Shown piece after piece: positions 8,877 to 61,429 of a DNA stretch of 64,000 nt. The notes below the pieces were generated by a model, which had not been told where the DNA came from, searched no databases, and saw nothing but the letters and a program-made list of their open reading frames with translations. Every line of letters starts with the position of its first letter. Position 1 is the stretch's first letter. The stretch is taken from contig OY969413.1 of the NCBI GenBank assembly GCA_963699165.1, positions 468,562-532,561 on the forward strand, given 5' to 3'. The stretch is from Candidatus Kaiserbacteria bacterium (GTDB lineage: Bacteria > Patescibacteriota > Minisyncoccia > Phycocordibacterales > Phycocordibacteraceae). Position numbers and translations under genes: made by a program.

Positions 8877-9890
8877 ATGTCGTTCATCTCCTACTCCTTC
8901 CTCGTCTTTTTCCCAGTCGTAACCATTTTATATTTTTGGACGCCCCAGCGCCTGCGCTGGGCTTTGCTTCTTTTTGCGAGCTGTATTTTTTACGTGGCCT
9001 TCATACCCGCCTATATTTTCGTGCTTTTCGGCCTCATTGCGGTCGATTACACCGCAGGCCGCCTGCTTGGAAAAGCAACAGGTGCGTATCGGAAATGCAT
9101 CCTTCTCGCGAGCGTCATATCGACCTGCGCGGTGCTACTCGTATTCAAATATTTCAATTTCGCAAACGAAAACATTGCCGCGCTATCCTCGTTCCTTCAT
9201 TGGAACTATTCGATTGCCGCATTGTCGCTTGCATTGCCGCTCGGACTTTCCTTTCACACGTTCCAGAGCTTGAGTTACGTCATCGAGGTGTATCGGGGCA
9301 AATTCAAGCCCGAACGACACTTCGGCATCTACGCGCTCTATGTCATGTTTTATCCGCAACTCGTCGCGGGACCGATTGAACGTCCGCAACATCTTCTGCC
9401 GCAATTTTATGAAAACCATGTTTTTGACTACGAGCGCGTAAAAACCGGACTCATCCGCATGGCATGGGGATTTTTCAAAAAGATGGCGATAGCCGACAAT
9501 CTCGCGATCATTGTGAATCCGATTTTTGCTAATCCGTCGCAGTACGGCAGCATCTCGCTTATCATCGCGAGCATCTGCTTCACTCTCCAAATATATTTTG
9601 ATTTTTCAGGATATTGCGACATCGCGCTCGGTGCGGCACAGGTGATGGGATTTACGCTGATGGAAAACTTCAATCGGCCGTTCGCGGCAAAATCAATCGC
9701 GGAGTTTTGGCGCCGTTGGCACATTTCGCTCTCATCGTGGTTCCGCGACTATTTTTACTACCCGCTCGTGCTTTCGCAAAAGAAAGTCACTCCTGCGAAA
9801 ATTTACGCGACTACCCTTTTTACGTTTTTAGTAACGGGTTTTTGGCATGGCGCGAACTGGACCTTCGGCATTTTCGGACTTCTGCACGGT
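8877..9890 (+). pseudogene. MBOAT-family membrane O-acyltransferase (AlgI/DltB-like), 3' end replaced by IS3 insertion
   Basis: Multi-TM protein with MBOAT His motif region WRRWHISLSSWFRDYFYYPL and FWHGANW; reading frame runs into the IS left inverted repeat at 9891 and stops after LLHGARYPKRR... Confidence 0.7.
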
Positions 9891-10064
9891 GCAAGGTACC
9901 CCAAACGTCGGACACTCATTCTAAATACCAGCAGCTAATTTAGAATGTACCTATGGCAAAGAAAGCATACCGTATTGCTCCTGAGATTAAGGAGCAGATT
10001 ATCAACCGTATCAAAAACGATGGCATCAGTGTCGCTGAGGCAGCGAAAGAACACGGAGTCAGTA
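9891..10064 (+). mobile_element. solo duplicated left end of the IS3-family element (IRL plus first ~37 codons of orfA)
   Basis: 174 bp identical to 10065-10238, by direct comparison. Confidence 0.8.
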
Positions 10065-10127
10065 TGCAAGGTACCCCAAACGTCGGACACTCATTCTAAA
10101 TACCAGCAGCTAATTTAGAATGTACCT

Positions 10128-10388
10128 ATGGCAAAGAAAGCATACCGTATTGCTCCTGAGATTAAGGAGCAGATTATCAACCGTATCAAAAACGATGGCA
10201 TCAGTGTCGCTGAGGCAGCGAAAGAACACGGAGTCAGTACCGTCACTATCTATGCTTGGCTTGGCACCTCTGCAAAAGGAGTGAGTATCATTGAGCACAA
10301 CAGAGTGAAGAAGGAGAACGGTCTCCTTAAAGCACTCATCGGAGAATTGACGTTTAAACTCTCAAACGGAGAAAAAAGGGGCTCTTGA
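10128..10388 (+). CDS. IS3-family transposase OrfA (HTH)
   Basis: MAKKAYRIAPEIKEQIINRIKNDGISVAEAAKEHGVS helix-turn-helix, leucine-zipper-like C-terminus. Confidence 0.85.
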   Translation: MAKKAYRIAPEIKEQIINRIKNDGISVAEAAKEHGVSTVTIYAWLGTSAKGVSIIEHNRVKKENGLLKALIGELTFKLSNGEKRGS

Positions 10389-12756: not shown

Positions 12757-12930
12757 AAAAATACCCGAAAGTTCGGTGTCCCTTCGCCCTATCTAGCTTT
12801 TCTAAAATCGTGCTGCGTAATAATGGCTACAAACAAGGCTCTCGGGTCTGTCCGATACAAAAGTCTTCGGGCGGTGGCATGGGGATCCGAACTGTCAGCA
12901 TAGTACCGATAAAAAGTACTGAGACATGGC
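12757..12930. repeat. direct-repeat copy 1 (about 90% identical to 23128-23300), ending with att-like core CATAGTACCGATAAAAAGTACT
   Basis: Direct alignment of the two regions; contains AGTAC-N9-GTACT inverted half-sites at 12902-12920. Confidence 0.7.
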
Positions 12931-14937: not shown

Positions 14938-15503
14938 ATGGTACTTGATACAGACTCCTCTTTCATCATACTCCTGAGTATGCGCAGACCCCGAGATTGC
15001 AACTGCCGAACGGCGACCTCACTCTTCCCCAGTATGGTTGCAATTTCAGAGGACGAAAGCCCATCAATGAACCGCAGCACGAGTGCATCCTGCTGATCCT
15101 GTGGGAGCTTGGCAATCTTCTGCCTGAGCGACCTACCATCATCCTTCATTGCAGCCATGGCCTCGGCGTTCTCAGAATCATCCGGTATACCCTCGAAGAA
15201 TTCATCGTCTGCGCGCACCGTCTTTTTCTTACGATAATGATCGATGATGCAGTTGCGAGCGACCGTATAAAAGAACGCGAGCGGAGATTTCCCTGATGAG
15301 ACATACCTTGGAAATGACTCATACGCCTTGAGGAACGATTCCTGTGTCAGATCCGCAGCATCGGACTCATCGGAGACACGGAAGTATATATAGCGATACG
15401 GCGGCGTGAAATATGCCTCATACAGCACTGTAAAAGCCTCGGATTCACCGAGTCGCGCGCGACGAATCAGGTCCTCGACATTTTCCGGGTCGATTTTCTT
15501 CAT
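14934..15503 (-). CDS. RNA polymerase ECF-type sigma-70 family factor
   Basis: Region 2 (YRYIYFRVSDESDAADLTQESFLKAY) and region 4 (LSSSEIATILGKSEVAVRQLQSRGLRILR) signatures. Confidence 0.85.
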   Translation of the reverse strand: MKKIDPENVEDLIRRARLGESEAFTVLYEAYFTPPYRYIYFRVSDESDAADLTQESFLKAYESFPRYVSSGKSPLAFFYTVARNCIIDHYRKKKTVRADDEFFEGIPDDSENAEAMAAMKDDGRSLRQKIAKLPQDQQDALVLRFIDGLSSSEIATILGKSEVAVRQLQSRGLRILRSMMKEESVSSTI

Positions 15504-15685
15504 GGTCTATGAGTATAACGGAATACCGGGAATTTTGTGACAATCGCGATTAATAGCACATTTGAGAGCACCCTTACGATGTCTGATGTCCATAAAAGCG
15601 CTACAAACTCAAATGGCTCAAATCCCTGAGCGGTCTCTAGATTTTCCCGAGAAGCGTGATATAACCGGTGCTTAAAATATGGCTC

Positions 15686-15709
15686 GGCATAGCACCGATA
15701 AAAACTACT
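15686..15709. other. att-like core site copy 2 (CATAGCACCGATAAAAACTACT), immediately outside inverted repeat IR-A
   Basis: Alignment with 12895-12920 and 23334-23357; flanking TAAAATAT box is shared with the copy at 23312. Confidence 0.5.
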
Positions 15710-15711
15710 AC

Positions 15712-15912
15712 GGGCGGTGTGTATTGAACGAAGTTCGAATGTATTTTGAATTGAATCCTGATGACCAATGATGCGCGCCTCGGACACGCTCGCGGACTCG
15801 CGTGTGCAAAAACCAAAAAATTTCCTTACATTTTTCCCGCGCCTCCTCCCCCCACCCCTCCGCCGCGAAGCGGAAAAAGAAATGGAAAGGAAATTTTTGG
15901 TTTTGCTTCGCC
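15712..15912. repeat. IR-A: 201-bp perfect inverted repeat (partner 17592-17792)
   Basis: Reverse complement of 17592-17792 is identical base for base; contains a polypyrimidine tract CCTCCTCCCCCCACCCCTCC. Confidence 0.9.
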
Positions 15913-16122
15913 GTTTCAGTCTCCGAAAAGAGCAATCTTATTTTAACATTTTTGTTTGCTCTTTTCTCCACCCTCACGGCGACCGAGGCGCTTCCTCTCC
16001 GCGTTTAGTGGTAGCTCTAGGGTTCGTGGCTTCGTTCGCTGGTCGTGGTAACTCATAAAGCGGATTGTGCATGGCACAAACAAATCTGTTTGTGCTTGCC
16101 CCGCCCGCCCTGTGCGCGCACA

Positions 16123-16163
16123 AATCCCCGCCGTTTTTAGGAGATATTATAAAACGGCGGGGA
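16123..16163. terminator. bidirectional stem-loop downstream of the Fic gene
   Basis: ATCCCCGCCGTTTT-N13-AAAACGGCGGGGAT perfect 14-bp stem. Confidence 0.5.
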
Positions 16164-16171
16164 TTGCTCCC

Positions 16172-17275
16172 TTACTTGCGAAAAACACTTTTGATAGCAA
16201 CATCTTCTCCTTCCTTAGTTTTCATTTTGTGATTTTCTGGATTCGCAAAAATATCAATCATGCTTTCAATAAACTTCGTTTTTACTTCTTTGTGAATTTC
16301 AATCAATCGGCGGGCGTCGTCTTCGGTAAGATTAGGCATAAGTTCTTCGGCATCAATCCCAGCAATTTTTTTGCCAACATCTTCGGGCACGACGCCCCGC
16401 CTTTCATCAAGTGGTTGTTTTACCTGATATTGATATTTTTGCAAATCAGTTTTTTCACTAAGAAATTTTGAAAGCACAATACCTCTAAAAGAAAAATTAT
16501 TTACATCGCCTTCGCCGAGGACTTTCTCGGCTAAAGTTGCTTCTTCGGGCGATAATTTTCCTTTTACGGCTTCCGACAAAAAACCAACACCAGAAGCGGA
16601 GGCAACATATATACTTCCATTTTCTTGAAGAAAATTATCGCCTAAAATTTCTTTGGCGACTTCACGATTTATGTAATAGTACGCACTATTAGCGTCCAAG
16701 ACTTTCTCCGCGAAAACATCTCGTCCTTTTCCAGTTCCACCATGACCCTCTTTGTCGTGATCTAAAAGTTCAGAAAGTTTTTCCTCTGTAAGTTCCTTGC
16801 CGTCCTCGGAAATTATTTCGTGAAGTAATCTTCCTGTTCTTCCGTTTCCGTCAGAATATGGATGTATGGCTTGAAGTGCGTAGTAAGTTAAAAGCGCGCG
16901 GTCTTCGTTATCTGGTATTTGTTTGAGTGCATCAAAACTTTCTCTCATCAAGCCGTCTTTCTGCTCGGCCGCTGGTGGGAGATATGAAATATCTCCCATA
17001 ATGCCAAAAGAAACTTCAACACCACTTCCGTCTACCGCACGCTTCTTTATCGGTACTTCGCGCAAGATTCCATTTAAACGAGTGAGATAATTTGTATAGT
17101 CTTCGTAAGAAAGTTTTTGAAGCCACTCATCAAACTGCTCGTCAGATTTTCTAACATCCAAAAATTTTGTGCGGTCCAAAAACTCAAAAACTTTCTTACC
17201 AGTTTCAAGTTTTTCCTCCACGGGTTCTTGTTTTTCTTGACGAGGAGTAGGTTGTGGGAATGATTCCATGCTCAT
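16172..17275 (-). CDS. Fic-family protein (AMPylation-type FIDO domain)
   Basis: Fic motif HPYSDGNGRTGRLL. Confidence 0.85.
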   Translation of the reverse strand: MSMESFPQPTPRQEKQEPVEEKLETGKKVFEFLDRTKFLDVRKSDEQFDEWLQKLSYEDYTNYLTRLNGILREVPIKKRAVDGSGVEVSFGIMGDISYLPPAAEQKDGLMRESFDALKQIPDNEDRALLTYYALQAIHPYSDGNGRTGRLLHEIISEDGKELTEEKLSELLDHDKEGHGGTGKGRDVFAEKVLDANSAYYYINREVAKEILGDNFLQENGSIYVASASGVGFLSEAVKGKLSPEEATLAEKVLGEGDVNNFSFRGIVLSKFLSEKTDLQKYQYQVKQPLDERRGVVPEDVGKKIAGIDAEELMPNLTEDDARRLIEIHKEVKTKFIESMIDIFANPENHKMKTKEGEDVAIKSVFRK

Positions 17276-17300
17276 AAATGTATTTTATCAGTTTTAATAA

Positions 17301-17513
17301 TTATTTCAAAAGTTCATCGCTCGCAACTCCTAACGCTTGAGCGATTTTTTCAATAGTAGAAAGTGTCGGGTTGCCCTTGCCAGCCTCGATATTACTCATT
17401 TGAGCGCGATCAAATCCGAGAGCACGACAAATGTCGCCTTGCGACATTTTCTTCCGCTCCCGTATGCGTTTGATGTTTTTTCCAAGCTTTATTGACGAAG
17501 TTTTCATATTCAC
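17301..17513 (-). CDS. XRE-family HTH transcriptional regulator (Cro/C1 type)
   Basis: 70 aa; LGKNIKRIRERKKMSQGDICRALGFDRAQMSNIEAGKGNPTLSTIEKIAQAL. Confidence 0.8.
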   Translation of the reverse strand: MNMKTSSIKLGKNIKRIRERKKMSQGDICRALGFDRAQMSNIEAGKGNPTLSTIEKIAQALGVASDELLK

Positions 17514-17591
17514 AGCTTGTATTCTAGCAGTTTGTTGTGTCCTATATCAATAATGTGATATATTACAATAGATGATGAATGATTTTATAAC

Positions 17592-17792
17592 GGCGAAGCA
17601 AAACCAAAAATTTCCTTTCCATTTCTTTTTCCGCTTCGCGGCGGAGGGGTGGGGGGAGGAGGCGCGGGAAAAATGTAAGGAAATTTTTTGGTTTTTGCAC
17701 ACGCGAGTCCGCGAGCGTGTCCGAGGCGCGCATCATTGGTCATCAGGATTCAATTCAAAATACATTCGAACTTCGTTCAATACACACCGCCA
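17592..17792. repeat. IR-A': inverted partner of 15712-15912
   Basis: Perfect reverse-complement identity. Confidence 0.9.
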
Positions 17793-17910
17793 AAATTCGG
17801 AATCAGAAGAAACGGACAAAGCGGGGTCGCGCCGAAGGCGCGACACTAATGCATTCCCCCCGCCGAATCCAGAATCCAAAAGGGTTTTCCACGCTCCGCG
17901 TGGCTCGTCG
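17793..17910. repeat. IR-B: 118-bp perfect inverted repeat (partner 19341-19458), directly abutting IR-A'
   Basis: Reverse complement identical to 19341-19458. Confidence 0.9.
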
Positions 17911-17927
17911 TTTGCCAATACAATTCT

Positions 17928-19583
17928 ATGAATAATCAAACCAAAAAGTTTTTCATATATACTCGCAAGTCTACGGACGACAAAGACAGACAAGTCCGCA
18001 GTATTTCTGACCAACTTTCAGAGTTAAAGGAGTTAGCGTTGAAAGAACAACTGGAAGTGGTAGATGTCTTTGTCGAAAAGCAGACCGCCAAAATACCAGG
18101 TCGCCCTGTGTTTAATGAAATGATAGAGCGTATGGAAAAAGGCGAAGCGTCTGGTATTTTGGCGTGGCATCCCGATAGACTTGCGAGAAACTCGGTAGAT
18201 GGAGGAAAAATCATCTACCTCGTTGATACTGGCGTAATCGTAGAGATGAAATTTCCAACTTTTTGGTTTGATCCGACACCGCAAGGGAAATTCATGCTCT
18301 CAATCGCTTTTTCGCAATCCAAGTATTATGTGGATAATTTAAGCGAGAACATTAAGCGCGGACATAGAAACAAAGTGAAGGAAGGAATATGGCCTCAAAT
18401 GTCTCCGATTGGATATGTGAACGAGAAAGGAAAAGGTATCGTGCCACATCCCGAGCTTGCTCCACTTGTCCGTAAGACATTTGAGGCATATTCAACTGGA
18501 AACTTCACTTTGCGGGAAGTCCGCGACAAATTTAATGGTCTTGGATTGAAGCGAAAAAGCGGTAGAGAGCTTGCGGTGTCGAATTATCAAAAACTTCTCA
18601 AAAATCCTATTTACACTGGTCTAATGAGGTATAACGGAGAGATTTTTGAGGGCAAGCACGAACCGATTATTTCAAAGAAACTTTTTGATACAGTACAAGA
18701 AGTGATGAGCCGAAAATCTAAACCGCATAGCAAAGGCTTGAAGCCATATATCTATCGCGGATTTTTCCGTTGTGGAGAGTGTGGTTGTTTCATTACCACC
18801 GAGCAACAAAAAGGTCATAACTATCTCCGCTGTACCAAACGGAAAAATCCTTGCTCACAGAAATATGTTCGCGAGGAGCTCATCACTTCTCAAATTCAAG
18901 AAGAAATCAAAAAAGTTTCTTTGCCTCTCGATTGGACGGAATGGATGATTGCCGAAAATGCAAAAGATCGGCAATCGGAAGTCCAGTCGAGTGAGATTTT
19001 TTCTCAAAAAATTCAAAATGAAATTTCTCTTTTGGATTCAAAAATAGAGAAGCTGATGAGTGCCTACCTCGAAAGTGCGTTGTCACTTGAAGAATATCGC
19101 GAAGCTAAAAACAAGTTGGTTAACCAAAATCAGCTTCTCAAAGAGAAATTAATAGCTTTTGAGAAAAAATCTCATAATCGGTTCGAACTTACCGAAAAGT
19201 TTTTGAAATACAATATGGAATTGGCAAACGACCGAACAAATGAGGAAAATACTCATTTGTTCAAAAAAGTCGGTTCGAACTTTCAAATTAAGGATCGAAC
19301 CGTACTTTTTGAGCCACGCGGAGCGTGGAAAACCCTTTTGGATTCTGGATTCGGCGGGGGGAATGCATTAGTGTCGCGCCTTCGGCGCGACCCCGCTTTG
19401 TCCGTTTCTTCTGATTCCGAATTTTGGCGGAGGCGAAGAGATACGAACCCGACGGGTCGCACCTTCGCCCTATGGCTTACATCCTCAGTATTTTATTTCT
19501 GCTGCTCGGTTCGAATCTCGGCGGGGGTTCCATGTCATGCCTCATGGTTAGGTGATAAGAGCTACTCGGGACGGTGGACGTAA
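17928..19583 (+). CDS. large serine recombinase (resolvase domain, recombinase domain, zinc ribbon)
   Basis: N-terminus YTRKSTDDKDRQVRSISDQ (catalytic Ser region), CGECGCF zinc ribbon, C-terminal coiled-coil; the frame continues into IR-B', so the true stop may be earlier. Confidence 0.85.
   Translation: MNNQTKKFFIYTRKSTDDKDRQVRSISDQLSELKELALKEQLEVVDVFVEKQTAKIPGRPVFNEMIERMEKGEASGILAWHPDRLARNSVDGGKIIYLVDTGVIVEMKFPTFWFDPTPQGKFMLSIAFSQSKYYVDNLSENIKRGHRNKVKEGIWPQMSPIGYVNEKGKGIVPHPELAPLVRKTFEAYSTGNFTLREVRDKFNGLGLKRKSGRELAVSNYQKLLKNPIYTGLMRYNGEIFEGKHEPIISKKLFDTVQEVMSRKSKPHSKGLKPYIYRGFFRCGECGCFITTEQQKGHNYLRCTKRKNPCSQKYVREELITSQIQEEIKKVSLPLDWTEWMIAENAKDRQSEVQSSEIFSQKIQNEISLLDSKIEKLMSAYLESALSLEEYREAKNKLVNQNQLLKEKLIAFEKKSHNRFELTEKFLKYNMELANDRTNEENTHLFKKVGSNFQIKDRTVLFEPRGAWKTLLDSGFGGGNALVSRLRRDPALSVSSDSEFWRRRRDTNPTGRTFALWLTSSVFYFCCSVRISAGVPCHASWLGDKSYSGRWT
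19341..19458. repeat. IR-B': inverted partner of 17793-17910, overlapping the 3' end of the recombinase ORF
   Basis: Perfect reverse-complement identity. Confidence 0.9.
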
Positions 19584-21914
19584 ATCAAATTTTGATTCGA
19601 TAATCTTCATCCCTTCGCCCACCTGCATCCAGAAGAACGCCCAGAGCCAAATAAATGCAGCGAGCGAGAGCGGGATAGCTGTGACGAAGAGGCCAAAGAC
19701 AGCAAACGCGGTTGCTAAGATTTGCGTGAGCGAAGTCGCCCATATGATGCTCTTGGCTGGCAGGAACTTCCACCACCGTTCTTTGGTATGAGCGACATAG
19801 ACGAGCATGTGGCCGGAGACGGTCAGCTTAAGGAAGAATGCGGTCTGAATAATCGCGAGCGGCAGATGGAAAACCTCAGCAAGCAAGAAATACATGAGGA
19901 GACTGTTGGCGACGCCCACGAGGCCGAAGAGTGTTCCGAGCGTGAAGCGTTCGCGGGGCGCGAGATCGGCGGGTCGGTCGGCGCGCTTCACGCGGTCGAA
20001 GGCGAGCGTGATGATAGGAATGTCGTTAAGAAATGCGAGCAGAATAATCTGCACCGGAGTCAGCGGGAATCCTTTGATGATGAGGCCGAGTACAAGCGCA
20101 GTGACGATGAGACGGAAGCTCTCGCTGATGCGATAGACGGAATAGTTATAGAGGCGGAAAAAGATTTTGCGCGCCTCGGTGAGCGCGATCTGCATCACCG
20201 AGATGCCGGAGTCCAAGAGGACGATATCGGCAGTGCCTTTCAAGGCATCGACCGCATTGGCAACCGCAATGCCGACATCAGCCTTGCGTACGGCGGGCAG
20301 GTCGTTCACGCCGTCGCCGGTTGCGGCGACGATGTAGTGCTTTTGCGCGGCCGTCACGAGCGCGAGTTTGTCTTCAGGCGAGACCTCGGCGAAGGCGGCG
20401 GTCGTCGCGAAGATGTTGGCAGGTAGATGTGCGAGATCGAGATCCTTTGTTCGGATGACATTGCCCATGAGCCCAAGCGTTGCGGCGACATGCGTGGCGG
20501 TCTCCTTCGTGTCGCCAGTGACCATAATCGCATCAACGCCTTCGTCTTTAAGGAAACGAAGGGTCTCTTTCGCATCGGCGCGAAGCGGGTCGGCGAGAAC
20601 GAGCATACCGATGAGGCTCATGCCGTGCTCGTCCTCGATGCCCGACGGGTCTTTCTTGATCGCCACCGCTATCGCACGGGAGCCATCCTTGCTGGCGGCG
20701 TCCGTGTCACGATGCACGGTCTCTACGAGGCCGTCGAGCGGTGCACATAAGCCCTCGATGACTGGCGGCGTCCCGATAGATACGACGTAGCGAGTGCCGT
20801 CGTGCTCCAAAAGGGCTGTAGTGCGCTTCCTGGTCGAGTCGGCAGGGATTGAGGCAAGCACGCGATAGTCGGCGACACCGGCCTCGGGCGCGGCGCGGAT
20901 GATTGCTGCATCGATGGCACTCGCCGCCTCGGGGCCCGCTGCTGCGGCTGCATACGCACGCAGCAGCGCTTCAGAGAACTGCGCGTAGGCATGGACGCGC
21001 TCGACGGATATTTTGTTCTCCGTGAGCGTGCCCGTCTTATCGGTGAGCAGGAGCGAGACATTCGCGAAGTCTTCAAGGGAGGAGAGGCGGCGCACCAATG
21101 CTTTCTTGGCCGCCACCGCCAGCGCTCCAATCGAGATAATGAGCGTCATCACGGTCGGCAGAGAGACCGGTATGCCCGCAATGAGGAGCGAGAGATCGAG
21201 GATAAGTATGCTTGCAATCGGCTGACCGTCGAGAATGAAGATGATTGTAAGGATTACGACGGCAATCAAGCTCGCGATGATGAGATAGCGCGAAATGGAG
21301 AGAATGTCGCGCTCCATGCTCGACTTCCGCTTTCCTTCCTTTCCTGCGGAAGCAATCTTACCGAAGAATGCTTGATTGCCGATTGCAGAGACAGTGCCAG
21401 TGAAGTTGCCCGTCACGACGACCGACCCCGAGTATGCGGTATCGCCGACTTTTTTCTCCTTCGGGAGCGACTCGCCGGTGAGCACCGCTTCATTTATTTC
21501 AAGATTGATCGCTTCGTCGATGCACGTGTCGGCCGTCACCAGTGCGCCGACGCCGCATTCGATGACATCCCCCACTACAAGATTGTGCGACGGAACGTTC
21601 TCCCATGCGCCATCGCGCAGCACCTTCGCCTCCACCGAGAGCTGAGAGCGCAGTGCTTCGAGCGCGTTGTCGGCCTTGCGCGTGTGCCAGAGCGTCATGC
21701 CGACGTTCAGCGCCAAGAGCGCGAGGATGAACCACCCGTCAAACTGTTGGCCAATATAGAAGGAGAGCGCTGATGCAACGATAAGCATTAGCGACGCCGG
21801 CGAGGCGAGTGCCTTGAGGAGTTTGACGAATGCGCTTGGCCGCTTCTCAACTATTTCGTTGGGCCCATACTTCGCTAACAAACGGCCCGCTTCTGCGGAT
21901 GAGAGTCCTACCAT
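19548..21914 (-). CDS. cation-transporting P-type ATPase
   Basis: TGES, DKTGTLTEN phosphorylation motif, GDGVNDLPA hinge; 10 TM-like segments. Confidence 0.85.
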   Translation of the reverse strand: MVGLSSAEAGRLLAKYGPNEIVEKRPSAFVKLLKALASPASLMLIVASALSFYIGQQFDGWFILALLALNVGMTLWHTRKADNALEALRSQLSVEAKVLRDGAWENVPSHNLVVGDVIECGVGALVTADTCIDEAINLEINEAVLTGESLPKEKKVGDTAYSGSVVVTGNFTGTVSAIGNQAFFGKIASAGKEGKRKSSMERDILSISRYLIIASLIAVVILTIIFILDGQPIASILILDLSLLIAGIPVSLPTVMTLIISIGALAVAAKKALVRRLSSLEDFANVSLLLTDKTGTLTENKISVERVHAYAQFSEALLRAYAAAAAGPEAASAIDAAIIRAAPEAGVADYRVLASIPADSTRKRTTALLEHDGTRYVVSIGTPPVIEGLCAPLDGLVETVHRDTDAASKDGSRAIAVAIKKDPSGIEDEHGMSLIGMLVLADPLRADAKETLRFLKDEGVDAIMVTGDTKETATHVAATLGLMGNVIRTKDLDLAHLPANIFATTAAFAEVSPEDKLALVTAAQKHYIVAATGDGVNDLPAVRKADVGIAVANAVDALKGTADIVLLDSGISVMQIALTEARKIFFRLYNYSVYRISESFRLIVTALVLGLIIKGFPLTPVQIILLAFLNDIPIITLAFDRVKRADRPADLAPRERFTLGTLFGLVGVANSLLMYFLLAEVFHLPLAIIQTAFFLKLTVSGHMLVYVAHTKERWWKFLPAKSIIWATSLTQILATAFAVFGLFVTAIPLSLAAFIWLWAFFWMQVGEGMKIIESKFDLRPPSRVALIT

Positions 21915-23127: not shown

Positions 23128-23362
23128 GCGGAAAAGTTCGGTGTCCCTTCGCCCTATCTAGATTTTCTAAAAACGTACTGTGTAATAACGGCCAAGAATA
23201 AAGCTCTCGGGTCTATCCGATACTAAAGTCTTCGGGCGGGGGCGCAGTCATTCGAACCGTCAACATAGTACTAAGCCCTCACACAGAAGGCGCAGAGATT
23301 CGAACTAAAAATACGTTGTAAAATATAGGTTTCAACATACTACCGATAAAAAGTACTACCTG
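23128..23362. repeat. direct-repeat copy 2 plus tRNA-3'-fragment debris, ending with att-like core copy 3 at 23334-23357, abutting the tRNA-Ser 3' end
   Basis: Alignment with 12757-12930; internal T-arm-like fragments GCGCAGAGATTCGAACT and CAGTCATTCGAACCGTC. Confidence 0.65.
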
Positions 23363-23449
23363 CGGAGGCGGAGAGATTCGAACTCTCGAGAGCCTTTCGA
23401 CCCTGCCGCCTTTCCAAGGCGGTGCACTAGACCACTATGCGACGCCTCC
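23363..23449 (-). tRNA. tRNA-Ser (anticodon GGA)
   Basis: Manual fold: acceptor GGAGGCG/CGCCTCC, anticodon loop TTGGAAA, long variable arm, T-loop TTCGAAT; CCA not encoded. Confidence 0.85.
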
Positions 23450-32862: not shown

Positions 32863-33267
32863 GGGGGGTGACCGGCTTTGACGGTCTGTACTTTGAAAGA
32901 CGTGCGACGCAGTGCACTCCAATCAACACTAAAAACTGTTGGAAAACAAACTTGCCAAGAACACTCTTGCAAGCGTGAAGTCGCCGTACTTCGGTATGCG
33001 TGATTTCGCGTTCGCGTACGCGGCAGCCTAACGGCTCCTCGCCTGCGCGACGTCTGCCCTCCCGGGTTTCTACAGCCGGAGGAGCGGGCGGAATTATCTG
33101 AAGAATCGATGTCCGGTCTCCCGTCCGGCGCATTTAAATAAGGGATCGGGCAGGAATGGTTTCGTCTGCGTTCCTCGCATCCTGCCTAAGACACTAACGC
33201 TGACTATGCGTCGTAGAAGCGCTTTCATAGCCGGATTCGGACGGGGGTTCGATTCTCCCCACCTCCA
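32863..33267 (+). ncRNA. ssrA: tmRNA (ssrA)
   Basis: 5' GGGGGUGACCGGCUUUGACGG; 3' tRNA-like GGACGGGGGTTCGATTCTCCCCACCTCCA; acceptor pairing GGGGGUG/CACCUCC with a G3:U70 Ala identity pair; internal tag ORF ending FAYAAA*. Confidence 0.8.
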
Positions 33268-33277
33268 CTCGATAAAC

Positions 33278-33319: not shown

Positions 33320-33790
33320 GAGATGGAACGAGACGCCTGCGCGTCTCGTGTGGAGAATCGAAAGGCGCAGCGATGTTTTGTCAGCAGACAAAACCGCGAG
33401 CCGGGGTCGAGCAAATTCGCGAGTGACGACGAGCGAATTATGCGTGACCGACTCTCCCCGCTTAGCGATTCGTGACTTCGACTCCCGTTTTTCATATAAA
33501 CCGCGAGCCGGGGTCGCGAAAATTTCGAGCGGCGGCGAGAAATTATTCGTGACCAATTCTCCCCGCCCCAATTTGTCCGGAGCATTTTACTTAGCGATTC
33601 GTGACTTCGACTCCCTGTCTGCACGCCTCACGTGGAGAATCGAATGGCGGAGCGATGTTTTGTCAGCAGACAAAACCGCGAGCCGGGGTCGAGCAAATTC
33701 GCGAGTGGCGACGAGCGAATTATGCGTGACCTGTTATAAGAAAAGTAGCAGGTTCCAACGAATGTTTAGGCATAAATCCGGCCGCTAACT
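33320..33790. repeat. hairpin-rich repeat family A (two ~105-nt units at 33349-33452 and 33641-33744, plus GTGAC...CTCCCC subrepeats)
   Basis: Units are ~98% identical; internal hairpins GTTTTGTC-AGCA-GACAAAAC and AATTCGC/GCGAATT; begins with the reverse complement of a tmRNA-3'-like TTCGATTCTCCAC. Confidence 0.6.
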
Positions 33791-34589: not shown

Positions 34590-34960
34590 GGAGGTGAGCA
34601 AGACACCTGCGTGTCTTGCGTGGGAGAATCGAATGCCGGAGCCATGTGCGAAGCACAGCGAGGCGGGGTCGAGAGCACTTAGCACTTTTGCGAATACTTG
34701 GAGCAAAATGCTTAGTGACTCGTGACCAACTCCCCACCTATATACAAACCGCAGTCCTTTAGGAGTCGCGCAAATTCGCGAGCGAACCCAGTAGGTCATT
34801 CTGCTGAATGAGACGAGCGAATTATGCGTGACCGACTCTCACCGCTTAGCGATTCGTGACTTCGACTCCCCTACTGAAATGTATTGGAGCAAAATGCTTA
34901 GTGACTCGTGACCAATTCTCCCCGCTTCAGCTCTTGGAGCAATCCGATTAGCGATTCTCT
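34590..34960. repeat. hairpin-rich repeat family A, second cluster
   Basis: Shares GAGAATCGAATGCCGGAGC, GACGAGCGAATTATGCGTGACCGACTCTC[A/C]CCGCTTAGCGATTCGTGACTTCGACTCCC and GCTTAGTGACTCGTGACCAA(T/C)TC motifs with 33320-33790. Confidence 0.55.
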
Positions 34961-57877: not shown

Positions 57878-57927
57878 CAACTCTCCCGCTTGCCGTGGAG
57901 GAGGAGGTCGAGGGCGTATTGCATCGA
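57878..57927. repeat. ABC-3'-end repeat copy 1 (minus strand encodes FSMQYALDLLLHGKRES*)
   Basis: Alignment with 61433-61496. Confidence 0.85.
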
Positions 57928-57932
57928 AAACA

Positions 57933-58622
57933 TTATTTCTTCTGAAGAACTTCCCATTCCAACTTCAATGCTGACATTCGGTCAAGCAAAATGGGATGAG
58001 AAATATATGGAAGCGCATAAGTATAAAATTCTTCAAACAACGGAATATGTTGTTCCTTTTCATACTCCAATGCCTTTTCAACCGCTTGATATTTATCGAG
58101 CTGTCTTCCGAAAGATGCGGCGGCATCGCCTGAAGATTCAAAGCGAAGCCAAAGTTTCATAATCTCCTCTCCGGCATCCCCCATTCCACTGCAAATTTGC
58201 GTCAATGCTTTCTTTTCATTTTCGAACTTGATTGCTTTCAGCATTTTTCTTTCAGCCTCGTCGATTGTTGTGATGACTTCATCTCCGTGAATTGCCTCCG
58301 GCCAATCGTGCACTTCAAGCATGTCGAACAATCCATCTTTCTCCTCATCGGTGAGATTCCCGAACGAATTCGCCAAAACCCTTAACGCAACTATGTGATC
58401 TTGAACGGTTTCTGGATTTTCAACACCTCTACGTACCCATACGGTCCTAGGCAATTCTCCCAAGGCCTTCCAGACTTCAGGTGCGAGTTGTGCAAATTTA
58501 AGATTAGGCGCTTTCTCACTTTCGCCCGCCGTCTTGGGGTTAGGAAATGATTCATTCATTTTACTATTGTAGCTTAGCGGAGAATGAGATTCGACCGGGT
58601 GCTCAACTCTCCCTCTTGCCAT
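57933..58622 (-). CDS. HD-domain phosphohydrolase (YfbR-like)
   Basis: H...HD pattern: VQDHIVAL ... EVHDWPEAIHGD; alternative start MNESF at 58560. Confidence 0.65.
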   Translation of the reverse strand: MARGRVEHPVESHSPLSYNSKMNESFPNPKTAGESEKAPNLKFAQLAPEVWKALGELPRTVWVRRGVENPETVQDHIVALRVLANSFGNLTDEEKDGLFDMLEVHDWPEAIHGDEVITTIDEAERKMLKAIKFENEKKALTQICSGMGDAGEEIMKLWLRFESSGDAAASFGRQLDKYQAVEKALEYEKEQHIPLFEEFYTYALPYISHPILLDRMSALKLEWEVLQKK

Positions 58623-58660
58623 GAAGGAGGAGGTCGAGGGCGTGCTGCATCGAGCCCGCG
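58605..58660. repeat. ABC-3'-end repeat copy 2 (FAGSMQHALDLLLHGKRES*)
   Basis: Alignment. Confidence 0.85.
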
Positions 58661-58673
58661 AAACACGGCAGAG

Positions 58674-59132
58674 TTATTTCTCTACGATTCCCAATCGTGA
58701 TATGCCATACTCTTCAAATTCGTCCTCCCACTTAATAATGCAATCTTGCAGTTTCATAAACCGCTCTTCCTGCGTCATTTTTTTCCATTCTTCTTCGCTA
58801 TATCTATTGAAGAAATCCCTATCGCCAAGACGATCTTCAAGTTCATCCCAAAAAGCTTCATCGTCATATTCCTTAATAAGCCGGCTGATTTCAGTATCTT
58901 GTCCTGAAGGGTCGTATTCCAATTGGTGTTCAAATTGCTTGGGAAGGCCAAACAGCGGCGCAAGCGAAAAAACGTAATCCGCAATTTCATTGTATTTATC
59001 CAGATGCGGGTCGTCTTCCCTTCCTGTCCTATGACAATTTGCCATCCAATTCCCGAGGTAAACCAGTTGCGCGAGCGCAATATATTGATCTTTCGTAAAT
59101 TCCAGCGGCACTTTGGGCGTATTTGTCTCCAT
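58674..59132 (-). CDS. hypothetical acidic protein immediately downstream of the Doc/RhuM gene
   Basis: 152 aa, D/E-rich; 4-nt gap to the upstream gene. Confidence 0.4.
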   Translation of the reverse strand: METNTPKVPLEFTKDQYIALAQLVYLGNWMANCHRTGREDDPHLDKYNEIADYVFSLAPLFGLPKQFEHQLEYDPSGQDTEISRLIKEYDDEAFWDELEDRLGDRDFFNRYSEEEWKKMTQEERFMKLQDCIIKWEDEFEEYGISRLGIVEK

Positions 59133-59135
59133 AAT

Positions 59136-60083
59136 TTATTTCAGGAGTTGGGTAATGAGCGCGACCATTTGCTCTTTGTTTTTCGGGTCGCTCTCGGCCG
59201 TCAAAAGAGTAAGCGCAGTGAGCGCGCTCGGATTGATATTTCGGGCCGTTTTTACTTTCGCCTTTCGCAAGAACCAGATAAACGCAAAAGCACCCGAGCG
59301 CTTGTTGCCGTCGGTAAACGGATGGTTCTTGACCATGAAATACAGAAGATGTGCGGCCTTTTCTTCGATGCTCGCGTACACCGGCTTCCCGCCAAACGTC
59401 TGCATGACGTTACCGACAATTCCTTCCACATTCCCGGCGGCTCGTTCTTGCGCAAAAATTTCCGTCGCTTCTCCTTTCTTTAAAAGTTCCGAGCGAAGAT
59501 TGGCGATTGCCTCGGTAAGTTCGACGCCGGTGAGCTTAATTGCTTTCTTGGTAATTCCGACCGGCGTGAGCGTACCGCGGTCGTAGGCATCGAGCGAAAT
59601 CCATGTTCCCGAAAACTCTTTTACCAATTCGAGTATCGCTTTCGGATCGAGAACGACGTGTTCGGGCAAAAGCGCCTGAATGTCGCCGACCGACTTCATA
59701 AAGGCATCGTAGTTTTTGCCGATTTGCTTGCGATTGATGGTGTACCCCTTCGTGATGTGCTCGCGAAGCGTCTTGGTCGCCCATTGGCGGAATTCGATGG
59801 CAACTTTCGAATTTGTCCTGTATCCGACGCTTAAAACAACATCCAATGAATACATGGCCGTCGGCTTGAAGGAAGTAATGTGCATTTTTTGCACATTACT
59901 CTTTTCATCAATTTCCTTGTCTGTGAAGATCTTTCTGATGTGTTTTGTGACCACCGAACGTTCAATTCCAAAAACGTCTGCAATCTGGGCTTGTGTCGCC
60001 CAAATGCTCTCGTGTTCGAAATCGCCACGCAGTTCGATTGCGCCATTCTTCGCCTGATATATCACCACCTTATTTTTCGCCAT
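59136..60083 (-). CDS. Fic/Doc-family protein with an RhuM-like N-terminal domain
   Basis: N-terminus AKNKVVIYQAKNGAIELRGDFEHESIWATQAQIADVFGIERSVVTKHI (RhuM-like); Doc motif HPFTDGNKRSGAFA. Confidence 0.75.
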   Translation of the reverse strand: MAKNKVVIYQAKNGAIELRGDFEHESIWATQAQIADVFGIERSVVTKHIRKIFTDKEIDEKSNVQKMHITSFKPTAMYSLDVVLSVGYRTNSKVAIEFRQWATKTLREHITKGYTINRKQIGKNYDAFMKSVGDIQALLPEHVVLDPKAILELVKEFSGTWISLDAYDRGTLTPVGITKKAIKLTGVELTEAIANLRSELLKKGEATEIFAQERAAGNVEGIVGNVMQTFGGKPVYASIEEKAAHLLYFMVKNHPFTDGNKRSGAFAFIWFLRKAKVKTARNINPSALTALTLLTAESDPKNKEQMVALITQLLK

Positions 60084-60109
60084 ATACCGGCTATTGTATC
60101 ACTGCGGTT

Positions 60110-60162
60110 CTAACTCTCCCTTTTGCCGTGGAGGAGGAGGTCGAGGGCGTGCTGCACGAGCA
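60110..60162. repeat. ABC-3'-end repeat copy 3 (...ECSVQHALDLLLHGKRES*)
   Basis: Alignment. Confidence 0.85.
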
Positions 60163-60209
60163 CTCGGATGTGACATTGTCTTTTTTATCGTAATTAGTCC
60201 CACTTAGCT

Positions 60210-60746
60210 CTACTTTAAATTCCAAGCATCTTTTCCCGTTTCTAGAATCTTCCGTTCTTTTTCTAACAGCGGGTCATGAACTCGCTCTCTGTCACTTTTC
60301 TCGATAACAGTCCACATCTTGCCCGGCTTTTTTTCTCCACCATCAAGTTTTGGCTTCCTGTAACCTCTATTTAGGTTAATCTGTGCAGCTTTCTCAGCTG
60401 TTTTAATTGGAAGAATATAGCACTGATATTTTGATGGCGATTGAACTGCGACAAAAGCGACATACTGTGCTGTGTAAAATGAATCCTTTCTGTTGAAAAC
60501 GGGCTCTCGTCCACTGATAGTTTCCGAATCGGAATGCCCATACTGAATCCACCATCTGGCACCTATTTTATTGGTCGCGCCTTTCACTTGTATTTGCCAA
60601 GTTTTTCCATTCTTTGCGGCGAGTATATCTGAATTCGCACTCATACCGTCTTTGTTAAGATCCGTTGTGCGGTACCCGCGCGACTCGAGTTCGTTCATGA
60701 CTATTCTCTCGGCAATCTTCCCTATGCTTATTTTATTGAGAGACAT
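60210..60746 (-). CDS. PD-(D/E)xK nuclease, Hjc/Mrr-cat-like fold (restriction-endonuclease-like)
   Basis: IAERIVMNELESRGYRTTD...DILAAKNGKTWQIQVKG pattern. Confidence 0.5.
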   Translation of the reverse strand: MSLNKISIGKIAERIVMNELESRGYRTTDLNKDGMSANSDILAAKNGKTWQIQVKGATNKIGARWWIQYGHSDSETISGREPVFNRKDSFYTAQYVAFVAVQSPSKYQCYILPIKTAEKAAQINLNRGYRKPKLDGGEKKPGKMWTVIEKSDRERVHDPLLEKERKILETGKDAWNLK

Positions 60747-60802
60747 AGCGACTAGATTAACACTGATTGGAATTTAGGTGGAGAGGGTTTTACCACACTT
60801 TG

Positions 60803-60868
60803 TTAACTCTCCCTCTTGCCGTGGAGGAGGAGGTCGAGGGCGTGCTGCATCGAGCCCGCGGAGGTGAT
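60803..60868. repeat. ABC-3'-end repeat copy 4 (in frame after the kinase stop: ENISRLNHGITSAGSMQHALDLLLHGKRES*)
   Basis: Alignment; frame check. Confidence 0.85.
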
Positions 60869-60895
60869 TCCGTGATTCAAGCGAGAAATGTTCTC

Positions 60896-61405
60896 TTAGG
60901 ACAAACGTTCAAGATAGGCATCAATTTCTTTATGTGAGCGCAAAATGAGTACTTTATTTTTGTGTTCATTAATAAATCGACGGAGTTTCGACGCCTTGGT
61001 AAAGGTTCGCTTAATAATTTCCCCGAAGAATAGTACGTCGTCCCAAAAACTCGTTTCTTTATGGCGTTCTCGCGGATGCAACATTCTTTTCCCGTGGCTT
61101 ACTAGCCGTCTCCAAAGTGGGATATCGAGAAAAATAATCTGATCTGCCTGTGCGGCTATAAGATCTTGTATATGCAGATATGTCCCGTCTGAAACCCAAG
61201 ACTCTGCTTTAAGCGCCTCTGTCGCTTTATCTCTCACTCTCGCCCGCACTTGTTGGATAGTCGGCGCCGAACCACCGCTGATGTGTCCGCCACTCTCAAA
61301 CCAAAAACGGTCGAGATGGATGTGCGGTATAGAAAGTTTTTTTGATATCGCTTCAGCAAGCGTCGACTTCCCCGCCGCCGGTAGTCCGACTATATCTATG
61401 CGCAT
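60896..61405 (-). CDS. P-loop NTPase (adenylate-kinase-like / AAA_18 topology-modulation-like kinase)
   Basis: Walker A GLPAAGKST near the N-terminus; 169 aa. Confidence 0.55.
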   Translation of the reverse strand: MRIDIVGLPAAGKSTLAEAISKKLSIPHIHLDRFWFESGGHISGGSAPTIQQVRARVRDKATEALKAESWVSDGTYLHIQDLIAAQADQIIFLDIPLWRRLVSHGKRMLHPRERHKETSFWDDVLFFGEIIKRTFTKASKLRRFINEHKNKVLILRSHKEIDAYLERLS

Positions 61406-61429
61406 GGAAATAAGTATACCGCTTCTACC

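Follow-up and report, generated by a model that had tools for sequence, protein, structure and literature searches.

What kind of genetic unit encloses two adjoining gene modules within perfect inverted repeats, and carries a large serine recombinase (LSR) inside one of them? An earlier note on the window (the whole 64-kb stretch of DNA analysed here) had described such a locus, in which one pair of repeats enclosed a Fic gene and an XRE regulator with their promoter, and the other enclosed the recombinase gene. This gene content is confirmed, with a promoter-like site identified by consensus match, and the suggestion that the arrangement is non-standard is supported; no description of the double-repeat layout was found in the literature searched.

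Results

Repeats and boundaries of the element

Both inverted repeats are real and 100% complementary, as had been claimed, but their limits required revision. The arms of the first (IR-A), a at 15713-15915 and a' at 17589-17791, are 203 nt long with a spacer of 1673 nt, where 201 bp at 15712-15912 and 17592-17792 had been proposed. Those of the second (IR-B), b at 17787-17906 and b' at 19311-19430, are 120 nt long with a spacer of 1404 nt, where 118 bp at 17793-17910 and 19341-19458 had been given, the right arm being about 30 nt out of place. As short-read assemblers collapse repeats, the assembly alone is no proof of exact identity between the two copies of an arm; the likelihood that perfect matches of 120 and 203 nt arose by chance is nevertheless negligible. 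The two modules do adjoin, but rather than simply abutting, their middle arms share 5 nt (17787-17791, CCGCC), which belong to both a' and b, and the same 5 nt (as GGCGG) are the outermost nucleotides of both outer arms, a and b'. Together, a' and b constitute one continuous block of 318 bp (S), the halves of which recur inverted at the two ends of the element, and it is from this internal copy that both pairs of repeats arise. IR-A and IR-B are the sole long inverted repeats in the 64-kb window, and no further copy of either sequence was found elsewhere in it. The features of the locus are as follows.

15660-15712, minus strand: host flank on the left side (x), once the 3' trailer of a degenerate tRNA-Ser copy, by alignment with the tRNA-Ser(GGA) trailer
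15713-19430: integrated element, 3.7 kb
15713-15915, plus strand: arm a (attL side), with the core GGCGG as its first 5 nt, then a P'-type half-site, then two hairpins
15916-16171, no strand assigned: distal cargo flank, partly conserved among elements, with a palindromic (self-complementary) hairpin at 16123-16165
16172-17275, minus strand: Fic-domain protein, 367 aa, cargo (PF02661, E 4.9e-9)
17301-17513, minus strand: XRE-type HTH protein, 70 aa; its gene opens the cargo operon and is retained by the majority of the family
17521-17550, minus strand: promoter-like site for XRE-Fic, TTGATA-18-TAGAAT, 10/12, TG, by consensus match only
17589-17906: block S, comprising a', the core CCGCC and b; an intact copy, in inverted orientation, of b'-core-a (the joined ends of the element)
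17928-19583, plus strand: LSR ORF (Resolvase, Recombinase and Zn_ribbon_recom domains)
17928-19310, plus strand: 461 LSR codons contributed by the unique segment, with all recognised domains
19311-19430, plus strand: arm b' (attR side), with a P-type half-site and two hairpins, ending in the core GGCGG (19426-19430)
19431-19583, plus strand: read-through LSR tail in host DNA, 51 codons, replacing the native 17-codon end encoded by arm a
19431-19471, minus strand: 3' part of a degenerate tRNA-Ser-like copy, comprising T-arm and acceptor; the occupied target half-site
23362-23449, minus strand: intact tRNA-Ser(GGA), a paralogue of the occupied target, outside the element

Judged from its sequence, the region from 15713 to 19430 appears to be an integrated mobile element: its composition is unlike that of the host (GC 0.426, versus 0.519 in the rest of the window), and its flanks would be contiguous once it was removed. 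Every copy of the element observed is chromosomal; no circle-like contig was recognised among related loci, and no replication gene was found in the element or in 23 cargo sets examined.

A family of elements in Patescibacteria

Relatives of the recombinase were present in 223 stretches of a genome collection holding one genome per species, 80 of which were fetched, and 120 metagenome loci were added from a scan with arm a. The earlier note had proposed that related genomes be searched for both repeats, and the same layout (a, XRE plus variable cargo, a', b, LSR, b') indeed recurs in approximately 100 independent Patescibacteria assemblies. Perfect matches were seen in 12 of 28 a pairs and 41 of 69 b pairs, and arm identity is high within elements as against 77-98% between them. 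The whole 318-bp block is kept in relatives (97% in locus L005, 93% in L004), and both its full extent and the layout are shared by a second family, LSR2, which has a 42%-identical recombinase and targets tRNA-Ala. The element family is widespread in the ultra-small Patescibacteria (CPR), small, and inserted at the extreme 3' end of tRNA-Ser genes, and the distribution of relatives makes its mobility between CPR lineages clear.

The cargo differs among these relatives, spanning 1.5-6.4 kb across the family, and includes restriction-modification and other defence-type genes where the present element carries Fic. The Fic translation contains HPYSDGNGR, and HPYSDGNGRTGR within it fits the Fic/Doc motif HxFx(D/E)GNGRxxR, from which the module is predicted. 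The Fic cassette is 96% identical in L204, where it adjoins a 75%-identical recombinase, and L001, L004, L005, L012, L013 and L029, among others, share pieces from positions 1-259 of the present cargo segment. In about 33 loci an XRE homologue is located, relative to the start of the recombinase, at -560 to -730. No recombination directionality factor was identified for the element; the XRE protein is only a candidate.

Target site and attachment geometry

The element ends at a core of 4-6 nt, of which GCGG corresponds to tRNA positions 71-74. In 57 of the 60 loci scanned, b' is immediately followed by the 3' end of a tRNA-Ser gene, whichever the isoacceptor, with the integrase gene at one junction, as in tRNA-targeting integrative elements. 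On the opposite side, arm a abuts the former tRNA trailer, and this left flank is unconserved across loci except for a TG derived from CCA. The motif TTCGAA occupies positions 21-26 in arm a and 16-21 in the tRNA, such that the T-arm motif is 5 bp further from the core. In serine integrases, the distal motif of an attP half-site likewise lies 5 bp further out than that of attB (PMC3783163), and by this measure arm a imitates the tRNA T-arm, shifted outward by 5 bp, in the known attP/attB geometry. The shift is seen on the P'/B' side only, the other half-sites having no clear motif, and it is repeated in the LSR2 family at tRNA-Ala. When the empty site of the window was rebuilt (15660-15712 joined to 19431-19471), it aligned with tRNA-Ser(GGA) and its trailer with a score of 84, compared with 24.5 +/- 4.5 (maximum 41) for shuffled controls. 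Neither ARAGORN nor Rfam recognises the occupied half-site in the window as a tRNA, and it is not a functional one.

The recombinase and its reading frame

The LSR has the domain set of a serine integrase, namely an N-terminal resolvase catalytic domain (PF00239, E 6e-20), a recombinase domain (PF07508, 4.6e-16) and a zinc ribbon (PF13408, 1.5e-7), which in this class bears a coiled-coil insert. Its nearest solved relatives are the A118/LI and SPbeta integrases, and residues 206-413 align to the C-terminal domain of the former, A118; identity to phage or plasmid homologues is at most 28%, a remote but significant similarity. More than 7500 homologues were found, the best 120 of which are 83-100% identical, and the named ones among these are all Patescibacteria. 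No sigma-70-like promoter was predicted for the LSR.

As had been noted, the ORF reads into the right arm of IR-B: it passes through the whole of b', which encodes 40 further codons, and continues for 153 nt beyond. This frame is open in 75 of 76 distinct b' arms, and the synonymous fraction across b' is 0.29 in the LSR frame versus 0.11 and 0.14 in the other frames, although these counts come from related sequences and hence are not independent. The coding signatures run through b', over the core, and 16-20 codons into a, where they mark the native tail. In homologous ORFs, a C-terminal end antisense to tRNA was found in 62 of 87 (59 of which fit the pattern outright, while three, including the protein of the window, were added by eye from the unclassified), and the native tail in 9 of 87. 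As the frame spans the core, integration via the site in the gene would replace the C-terminus by tRNA-antisense read-through. The predicted crossover point thereby falls within the LSR's own ORF, as in integrases termed 'suicidal', with only the last 16-20 codons displaced. We found no bacterial description, in the literature searched, of an integrase gene lying across its own crossover point.

Orientation and isomers

The orientation of both segments is strongly biased. Among 35 genome loci, XRE and the recombinase are neighbours in about 33, and almost all recombinase genes point to the tRNA; an inverted cargo was seen in some 10 of the 78 copies that were informative (~13%), and an inverted recombinase segment in L208, L082 and L194, with the proviso that short-read repeat collapse can bias such orientation calls, as well as the apparent perfection of arm identity. 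In L208, a rare isomer, the LSR gene is intact and joined to its native tail, and as the two arms of this locus are different alleles, there is no assembly ambiguity there. Further, in L016, L017 and L021 the tRNA-Ser 3' end is joined to b at the same core position, which indicates that S does serve as an attachment site.

Discussion

Nature of the element

The element in the window is probably a member of the tRNA-Ser-inserting CPR family, moved by its large serine recombinase, with repeats that represent one att region in split and in intact form. Its free form would be circular, with the att block present twice in inverted orientation, and integration would normally proceed through the copy inside the LSR gene, giving a stable isomer in which the 3' end of the gene is displaced and the gene is convergent with the tRNA. 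We infer that the role of the internal copy is twofold, in that S would both remain usable as a second attachment site and hold a spare, intact LSR 3' end. The minority isomer, with the LSR gene intact and co-directional with the tRNA, would result either when the LSR segment flips between b and b' or when the element integrates via S, and gene conversion between the arms would maintain repeat identity. If the att copies were equivalent, then approximately equal isomers would be expected; the bias of about 90:10 requires an extra assumption, and needs either selection against the intact-gene isomer or preferred use of the in-gene copy.

The large serine integrases of phages and integrative elements (A118/LI, SPbeta, phiC31, Bxb1 and TP901-1) share with this LSR the same domain set, site-specific insertion at a short core, and the 5-bp attP/attB shift. 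Unlike in those systems, the attachment core sits inside the integrase ORF, the entire att region is present once more, inverted, within the element, and the arms extend over 120 and 203 nt, compared with the usual 40-50 bp of serine-integrase sites; the family also differs in accepting any tRNA-Ser isoacceptor as its target. Tn4451 (TnpX) and Tn5397 (TndX) are likewise small elements moved by a large serine recombinase, with a circular intermediate, and are not known to have a directionality factor; nor are they known to have long inverted repeats, an internal att copy or tRNA targeting, all three of which the present element displays. 'Suicidal' tyrosine integrases of the SSV type, from archaeal viruses and plasmids, have the recombination site in their own gene, which integration breaks, and have been reported only from archaea (PMC8371274). 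The present LSR shares this in-gene site, but whereas the SSV-type enzyme is a tyrosine recombinase split near the middle, it is a bacterial serine recombinase that loses only its C-terminal extremity, and the element, unlike SSV-type ones, retains the 3' end of the gene a second time, inverted, as a spare. The LSR itself is not an archaeal SSV-type tyrosine recombinase, given its serine recombinase domains and its named relatives, which are all Patescibacteria; the likeness is one of principle only.

In layout, the closest likenesses lie further afield. The yeast 2-micron plasmid carries FLP, a tyrosine recombinase, and its FRT targets in 599-bp inverted repeats, replicates autonomously, and uses inversion for copy-number amplification. 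It too has two unique segments and two perfect inverted repeats containing the recombinase target, with the recombinase in one unique segment, and the window element resembles such a circle opened within one repeat. A 2-micron-like plasmid is not what the locus holds, as no replication gene was seen and all copies found are chromosomal. Herpes simplex virus has the layout ab-UL-b'a'c'-US-ca in a linear 150-kb genome that isomerises by homologous recombination during replication and has no site-specific integrase. Here the analogy is of layout only: an internal junction made of the inverted, fused termini, inverted repeats flanking both unique segments, and isomers.

Alternative explanations

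An unlikely alternative is that S, a duplicated block for both recombinase binding and termination, acts solely as an operator or insulator for the divergent XRE and LSR genes on either side of it, comparable to res for the Tn3 resolvase, with no part in recombination or gene repair. The repeats would then be incidental, and gene conversion would maintain their likeness. S does sit exactly between the divergent XRE operon and LSR gene, the standard orientation prevails, and both arms contain conserved hairpins beyond the ~50-nt half-sites, some with compensatory changes. Against this, the three loci in which the tRNA-Ser 3' end meets b at the exact core, together with the LSR of L208 joined to an intact tail, indicate that S, or an equivalent, takes part in site-specific joining; and the retention of layout and all 318 bp alongside a recombinase of 42% identity is more than an operator needs.

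We regard as still less probable that the locus comprises two independent phase-variable segments, of shufflon or Hin/Gin type, with the recombinase often flipping Fic-XRE and its own gene so as to switch their expression. Hin, Gin and Cin are small invertases that act on 26-34 bp sites with the help of Fis and an enhancer; their locus, whether in a chromosome or a phage, is single and fixed, and inversion there switches a gene end or a promoter. The likeness is genuine, in that a serine-family recombinase is combined with inverted repeats around a segment, and hin also lies inside its own invertible segment. Perfect repeats near a recombinase bound both segments here, and relatives carry either one flipped, and the original impression of invertible segments is partly supported: each orientation occurs among the assemblies, and inversion of the LSR segment would exchange the 3' end of the ORF. 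These are probably not independent switches, however: the repeats are the att arms of a mobile element that moves between CPR lineages, inversion is rare, and orientations are biased rather than mixed. The promoter-like site for XRE-Fic lies within the unique cargo segment, so a cargo flip would not switch expression, and alters nothing obvious. Further, the outer repeat ends coincide with the tRNA-Ser integration junction in about 60 genomes, and such pairs of sites are not normally recombined by this class of serine integrase (PMC3783163). That the outer arms are halves of the 318-bp block and end exactly at this junction also contradicts the other origin initially suggested, namely a recent foldback-type element.

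A single-strand splint is highly improbable. According to this idea, CPR bacteria take up DNA in single-stranded form, and the element spreads by transformation without excision from the donor; pairing of a with a' and b with b' in a single strand of the integrated element would let S bring its two ends into register, to be trimmed and ligated as a circle, and each transfer would make the repeats uniform again through mismatch repair where the arms are annealed. The CTX phage provides a precedent for a folded, single-stranded attachment site. It would suit this model that S is a precisely inverted copy of the joined ends, that the arms are long, that their identity is higher within elements than between them, and that an element without transfer genes is common to distant CPR classes. 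Yet second-strand synthesis would be required before any LSR could be made, some elements appear intact although their arms are mismatched, and no sequence feature identifies a single-strand origin.

Finally, short-read assembly may place a segment the wrong way round when the repeats on either side of it exceed k, and may make repeat copies look identical, and many related contigs break at the arms. An assembly artefact (a palindromic misjoin or collapsed repeat), or a pair of unrelated side-by-side elements, can nevertheless be dismissed. The six-part layout recurs with the same arm lengths in ~100 assemblies of diverse origin, in terms of both project and assembler, some of them with contigs of 0.7-0.9 Mb, and this recurrence excludes the collapsed palindromic misassembly once envisaged; moreover, the arms end at tRNA junctions and both modules share one core and one continuous block.

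Significance

Beyond the identity of the element as an LSR-driven member of its family, we tentatively raise a further possibility, which we hold with some doubt: that a bacterial serine integrase interrupts its own gene, and that the element carries an inverted spare 3' end and second att site as an OFF/ON switch for its mobility. If so, then a flip of the LSR segment between the 120-nt arms, or use of the spare site for integration, would restore the gene to full length and set it downstream of the tRNA promoter. 'Suicidal' integration, reported so far only for archaeal tyrosine integrases, would extend to bacteria and to serine recombinases, and would be joined there by a mechanism for its repair.

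Results

Two perfect inverted repeats had been claimed from the sequence in the earlier note, and both were borne out, with 203 and 120 paired nucleotides respectively; no other long inverted repeats were found in the window. The repeats themselves are real, but the right arm of the second pair had been placed about 30 nt off.

Features of the window discussed in the text
15713-15915, arm a (outer left arm of the first inverted repeat, 203 nt paired, perfect)
17589-17791, arm a' (inverted copy of arm a)
17787-17906, arm b (inner arm of the second inverted repeat, 120 nt paired, perfect)
19311-19430, arm b' (inverted copy of arm b)
32864-33268, tmRNA

The enclosed genes were likewise as previously read, encoding Fic, an XRE-type HTH protein and a large serine recombinase (LSR), the last carrying all three Pfam domains. 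Arms a' and b, described as abutting, are indeed contiguous, but a 5-nt overlap between them (CCGCC, 17787-17791) had been missed. The middle of the region is therefore one continuous 318-bp block, hereafter S, of the form a'-core-b. The outermost bases of both outer arms are GGCGG, the complement of CCGCC, such that the region ends in core-a at the left and in b'-core at the right. Between these ends the order is [a][XRE and cargo][a'][b][LSR][b'], and the GC content is 42.6%, vs 51.9% in the remaining window. A hairpin loop within arm a (15846-15866; 17638-17658 in a') carries a C-rich run, CCTCCTCCCCCCACCCCTCC, at a position where other arm variants have its G-rich complement, GGAGGGGTCTGGGGAGGA; between variants, then, the loop itself is inverted. 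It could form a G-quadruplex or an i-motif, or act as an anti-Shine-Dalgarno-like sequence.

More than 7500 homologues of the LSR were found, the best 120 of which are 83-100% identical and 455 to 647 aa long; the named organisms among these 120 are all Patescibacteria MAGs. A scan of one genome per species returned 223 stretches encoding an LSR relative, 80 of which were fetched for comparison, and a metagenome scan queried with the start of arm a contributed 120 further loci. When these loci were each compared with themselves, a common six-part order emerged: [a][cargo of 1.5-6.4 kb][a'][b][LSR segment of about 1.4 kb][b'], in which b is nearly always 120 nt and a is 200-275 nt. Pairs of b arms are perfect in 41 of 69 cases, and pairs of a arms in 12 of 28, with another 10 at ≥99% identity, although repeat collapse in short-read assemblies could exaggerate such exact identity; between elements, arms are 77-98% identical. 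An assembly artefact, which might otherwise account for a double repeat, is excluded, as the same layout recurs across different projects and assemblers. Nor is the element a known phage or plasmid: the viral contigs searched contain a single distant relative (66%), and the phage and plasmid collections only homologues at ≤28% identity. The window's element belongs to a large and as yet undescribed family of CPR serine-integrase elements that target tRNA-Ser.

The layout extends to related recombinases. A second family, represented by locus L028 (8632-11994), encodes an LSR 42% identical to that of the window, lies at tRNA-Ala, and has the same six-part layout with arms of 154 nt and 132 nt; inverted repeats spaced about 1.4 kb apart also surround homologues at 47-50% identity. 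Sister families with the double-repeat layout and LSRs 42-50% identical were seen at L028, L012, L040, L077, L096 and L144, where they frequently form tandem arrays with members of the tRNA-Ser family.

Target site and attachment geometry

Arm b' runs directly into the 3' end of an opposite-strand tRNA-Ser gene in 57 of the 60 loci scanned, and any isoacceptor can serve (GCT, CGA, GGA, TGA and ACT were all hit). The ...CCGCCA end of the tRNA shares the last 4-6 nt of b', and the flank to the left of arm a is unconserved apart from a TG derived from CCA. The overlap varies from 4 to 11 nt, with a minimal shared core, GCGG, corresponding to tRNA positions 71-74. Arm a begins GCGG-TGTGTATTGGACAAAGTTCGAA, and the tRNA side reads GCGG-AGnnnnnnGGATTCGAAC; thus, measured from the core, the T-loop motif TTCGAA is exactly 5 bp more distant in arm a than in the tRNA. 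The T-arm mimic of the tRNA-Ala family (L028) is shifted by +5 likewise. Such a +5 bp relation between attP and attB half-sites is established for the Listeria A118-type integrase (PMC3783163). A search for dyad symmetry relating the half-site of b to that of a, by which the crossover dinucleotide within GCGG might be placed, gave nothing convincing.

Scans of 15400-19700 for tRNA and Rfam families called no RNA gene. When the element was removed in silico, the joined flanks aligned with the 3' half of the intact tRNA-Ser(GGA) gene (23362-23449) and about 55 nt of its trailer, with a score of 84 vs 24.5 ± 4.5 for shuffled sequences (maximum 41). The element therefore sits in a degenerate partial duplicate of that locus, and because the alignment spans the junction, its boundaries are confirmed. 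The window has two copies of the 3' half of tRNA-Ser(GGA) together with about 300 nt beyond it: 12768-12906 and 23133-23271 are 85% identical over 139 nt, and 15660-15712 plus 19431-19471 match 23300-23449. The 19.5-23.1 kb region bracketed by these copies encodes a P-type ATPase and small membrane proteins; on the other side they enclose a 2.7-kb block that encodes an ECF sigma factor. The pattern resembles an older island or segmental duplication, and the LSR element would have taken one of its repeats as target.

With x denoting the left host flank, the left end (attL) reads x-core-a and the right end (attR) b'-core-tRNA; joining the ends would give b'-core-a, an attP-type site. S duplicates this site, intact and in inverse orientation, between the divergent XRE operon and LSR gene. 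What had been read as two abutting modules follows from this single internal copy.

A recombinase gene that crosses its own attachment site

The unique segment of the LSR gene has no stop codon. Across b', its frame stays open in 75 of 76 distinct arms, vs stops in 40 and 32 arms in the other two frames, and differences between b' arms show a third-position excess in the LSR frame and are synonymous there in 29% of cases, vs 11% and 14% in the other frames. Past the core, arm a extends the frame by 16-20 codons to a stop, encoding a conserved peptide, RC(V/L)L(D/N)(E/K)VR(M/N)YF(E/G)(Q/L)NP..., for which the synonymous fraction outside the search-pattern region is 41%, vs 2% and 10% for the other frames. 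An analogous 15-codon tail, DILNVARTHFERNC (translated from the L028 sequence), is present in the tRNA-Ala family. Since the frame continues via b' and the core into a, the LSR gene is full-length only where a follows b'. Integration swaps the last 16-20 residues of the LSR for read-through into the antisense strand of the tRNA gene. Such read-through explains the recurring ...RRGRDSNPR... tails and the variable protein lengths. For the window, the unique segment with b' and the 17 codons from a would encode a full-length LSR of 518 aa, vs 551 aa in the integrated form. The tRNA-antisense pattern was found in 59 of 87 homologous ORFs with the anchor, and in 62 once three more (P0001, P0014 and P0036) were added by eye from the unclassified class; a further 13 of the 87 end at the end of b' or of the contig, and nine carry the native tail. 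No sigma-70-like promoter was predicted for the LSR gene. Self-disrupting ('suicidal', SSV-type) integrases are known only from archaea, and are tyrosine recombinases (reviewed in PMC8371274).

The coding part of b' also contains a hairpin, GTCGCGCC-TTCG-GGCGCGAC (19372-19390; 17827-17845 in b), whose stem is kept through paired changes in other elements (GTCGGCAC...GTGCCGAC and GACGGCGC...GCGCCGAC). The structure, which appears to be under selection in addition to the coding constraint, is possibly a terminator between the convergent LSR and tRNA genes.

Cargo and exchange between elements

An XRE-like gene comes first in the cargo of 18 of 23 complete elements. The remaining cargo is variable, comprising Fic in the window and, among relatives, type III restriction-modification, HpaII and DpnII systems and an AAA_13 ATPase. 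Co-inheritance of cargo, arm a, arm b and LSR is weak (Spearman 0.2-0.4). At locus L204, a Fic-XRE cassette 96% identical to that of the window lies beside an LSR of 75% identity. The same cargo was seen with arms just 83-87% identical, and unrelated cargo with arms 98% identical. These pairs led us to reject cassette exchange by the recombinase at the cores, and place cargo exchange inside the arms instead. Mismatched arms are mosaics of arms from other elements. At L021 each arm is 100% identical to an arm of some other element and the LSR gene is itself mosaic, which rules against non-identical arms as decayed relics. Weak co-inheritance, shuffling of cargo and arms, and mosaic arms together indicate frequent recombination among co-resident elements, tandem arrays of which are common. 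Arm identity is probably maintained by gene conversion.

Isomers and use of the internal site

XRE adjoins S, the standard orientation, in approximately 33 of the 35 loci from genomes. The 212 copies of arm a include 78 of S-type, where the LSR 5' end follows b, and 122 of attL-type; of 78 informative cases, 10 have XRE beside an attL-type arm, which puts flipped cargo at roughly 13%. The 3' end of the LSR gene is joined via b'-core-a in tandem arrays (L040, L046, L081 and L148), and in L082 and L194, where XRE follows arm a. The clearest case is L208, which reads host genes, tRNA-Ser(CGA) (+), b, intact LSR with native tail, b', core, a; its two b arms are different alleles, so this orientation cannot be an assembly ambiguity. 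The LSR-b'-a junction of L081 had been considered as a circle, and was rejected as it belongs to a tandem array of two elements. Two candidate recombinase-free cargo modules were also set aside, L153 as a tandem array and L180 as a doubtful palindromic short contig. In the latter (1-2419), a glutamate-dehydrogenase-like gene lies between inverted host-like repeats of 66-75 nt with arm a outward on both sides; this is either a palindrome created in assembly or host DNA caught between two elements.

In three loci (L016, L017 and L021) b is joined, exactly at the core, to a tRNA-Ser 3' end. Beyond b', L016 and L021 carry the 3' end of a second, different tRNA-Ser gene; the contig of L017 stops just past the start of b', such that its far side is not covered. 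Because tRNA-b junctions arise only if a b-containing site, S or its flipped equivalent, has recombined with tRNA-Ser, the internal copy is recombinationally usable. The three loci look as if the internal site had recombined with a second tRNA-Ser gene, i.e., like chromosomal inversions made by the element.

Other repeats in the window

Direct repeats with 94-98% identity (33337-33449 with 33619-33731, and 33428-33486 with 34812-34870) lie immediately 3' of the tmRNA gene, a classic hotspot for integration; they could point to a further small island, or to what remains of one. Elsewhere, a 175-nt unit forms a perfect tandem duplication (9890-10239), and a 69-nt sequence occurs five times (70-100% identity) where successive minus-strand genes start, in a stretch of low GC (57878-61499, 42-49%), pointing to paralogous genes that share a conserved N-terminus or leader.

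Discussion

The free form of the element would be a circle with two inverted att blocks, in which full-length LSR may recombine b'-core-a with the 3' end of a tRNA-Ser gene. Use of the copy within the LSR gene would yield the common isomer, in which the native end is lost and the gene faces the tRNA gene; this is probably a quiescent state. The rare isomer, with the LSR gene intact and co-directional with the tRNA, would have arisen either by integration through the other att copy, or by a subsequent flip of the LSR segment at its 120-nt arms. The standard isomer predominates by about 9:1. The yeast 2-micron plasmid is also a circle with two inverted repeats, and in layout only, the element resembles such a circle opened within one repeat; its linear form would likewise match, again only in layout, the ab-UL-b'a'c'-US-ca arrangement of the herpes simplex genome.

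Alternatively, S may serve only as an operator or insulator between the divergent genes it separates, but this leaves the tRNA-b junctions unexplained. A role for S as a single-strand 'splint' in transformation is attractive but unsupported, and two independent phase-variation switches have a low probability. The earlier note was right that the arrangement is unusual and occasionally inverts, although what it described is in itself a tRNA-Ser-targeting serine-integrase element. Its view that no standard arrangement of this kind had been described also held, in that we found no description for bacteria, in the literature searched, of such a mirrored-att layout, in which an integrase ORF across its own crossover is combined with an inverted spare copy.

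The present analysis defines, from sequence alone, a very abundant and uncharacterized family of mobile elements in CPR/Patescibacteria, which carries defense and toxin genes between distant lineages; to our knowledge, little is known of gene transfer in CPR. It also provides predicted attP and attB sites for a new LSR clade that accepts any tRNA-Ser 3' end, and for a sister clade at tRNA-Ala. As serine integrases serve as genome-engineering tools, and we know of no genetic tools for CPR bacteria, these sites could be useful. Should the layout govern the activity or directionality of the integrase with no separate directionality factor, this would constitute a new regulatory principle for the enzyme class. 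More broadly, a live internal att site beside four to five tRNA-Ser targets per genome would be a ready source of chromosomal inversions.
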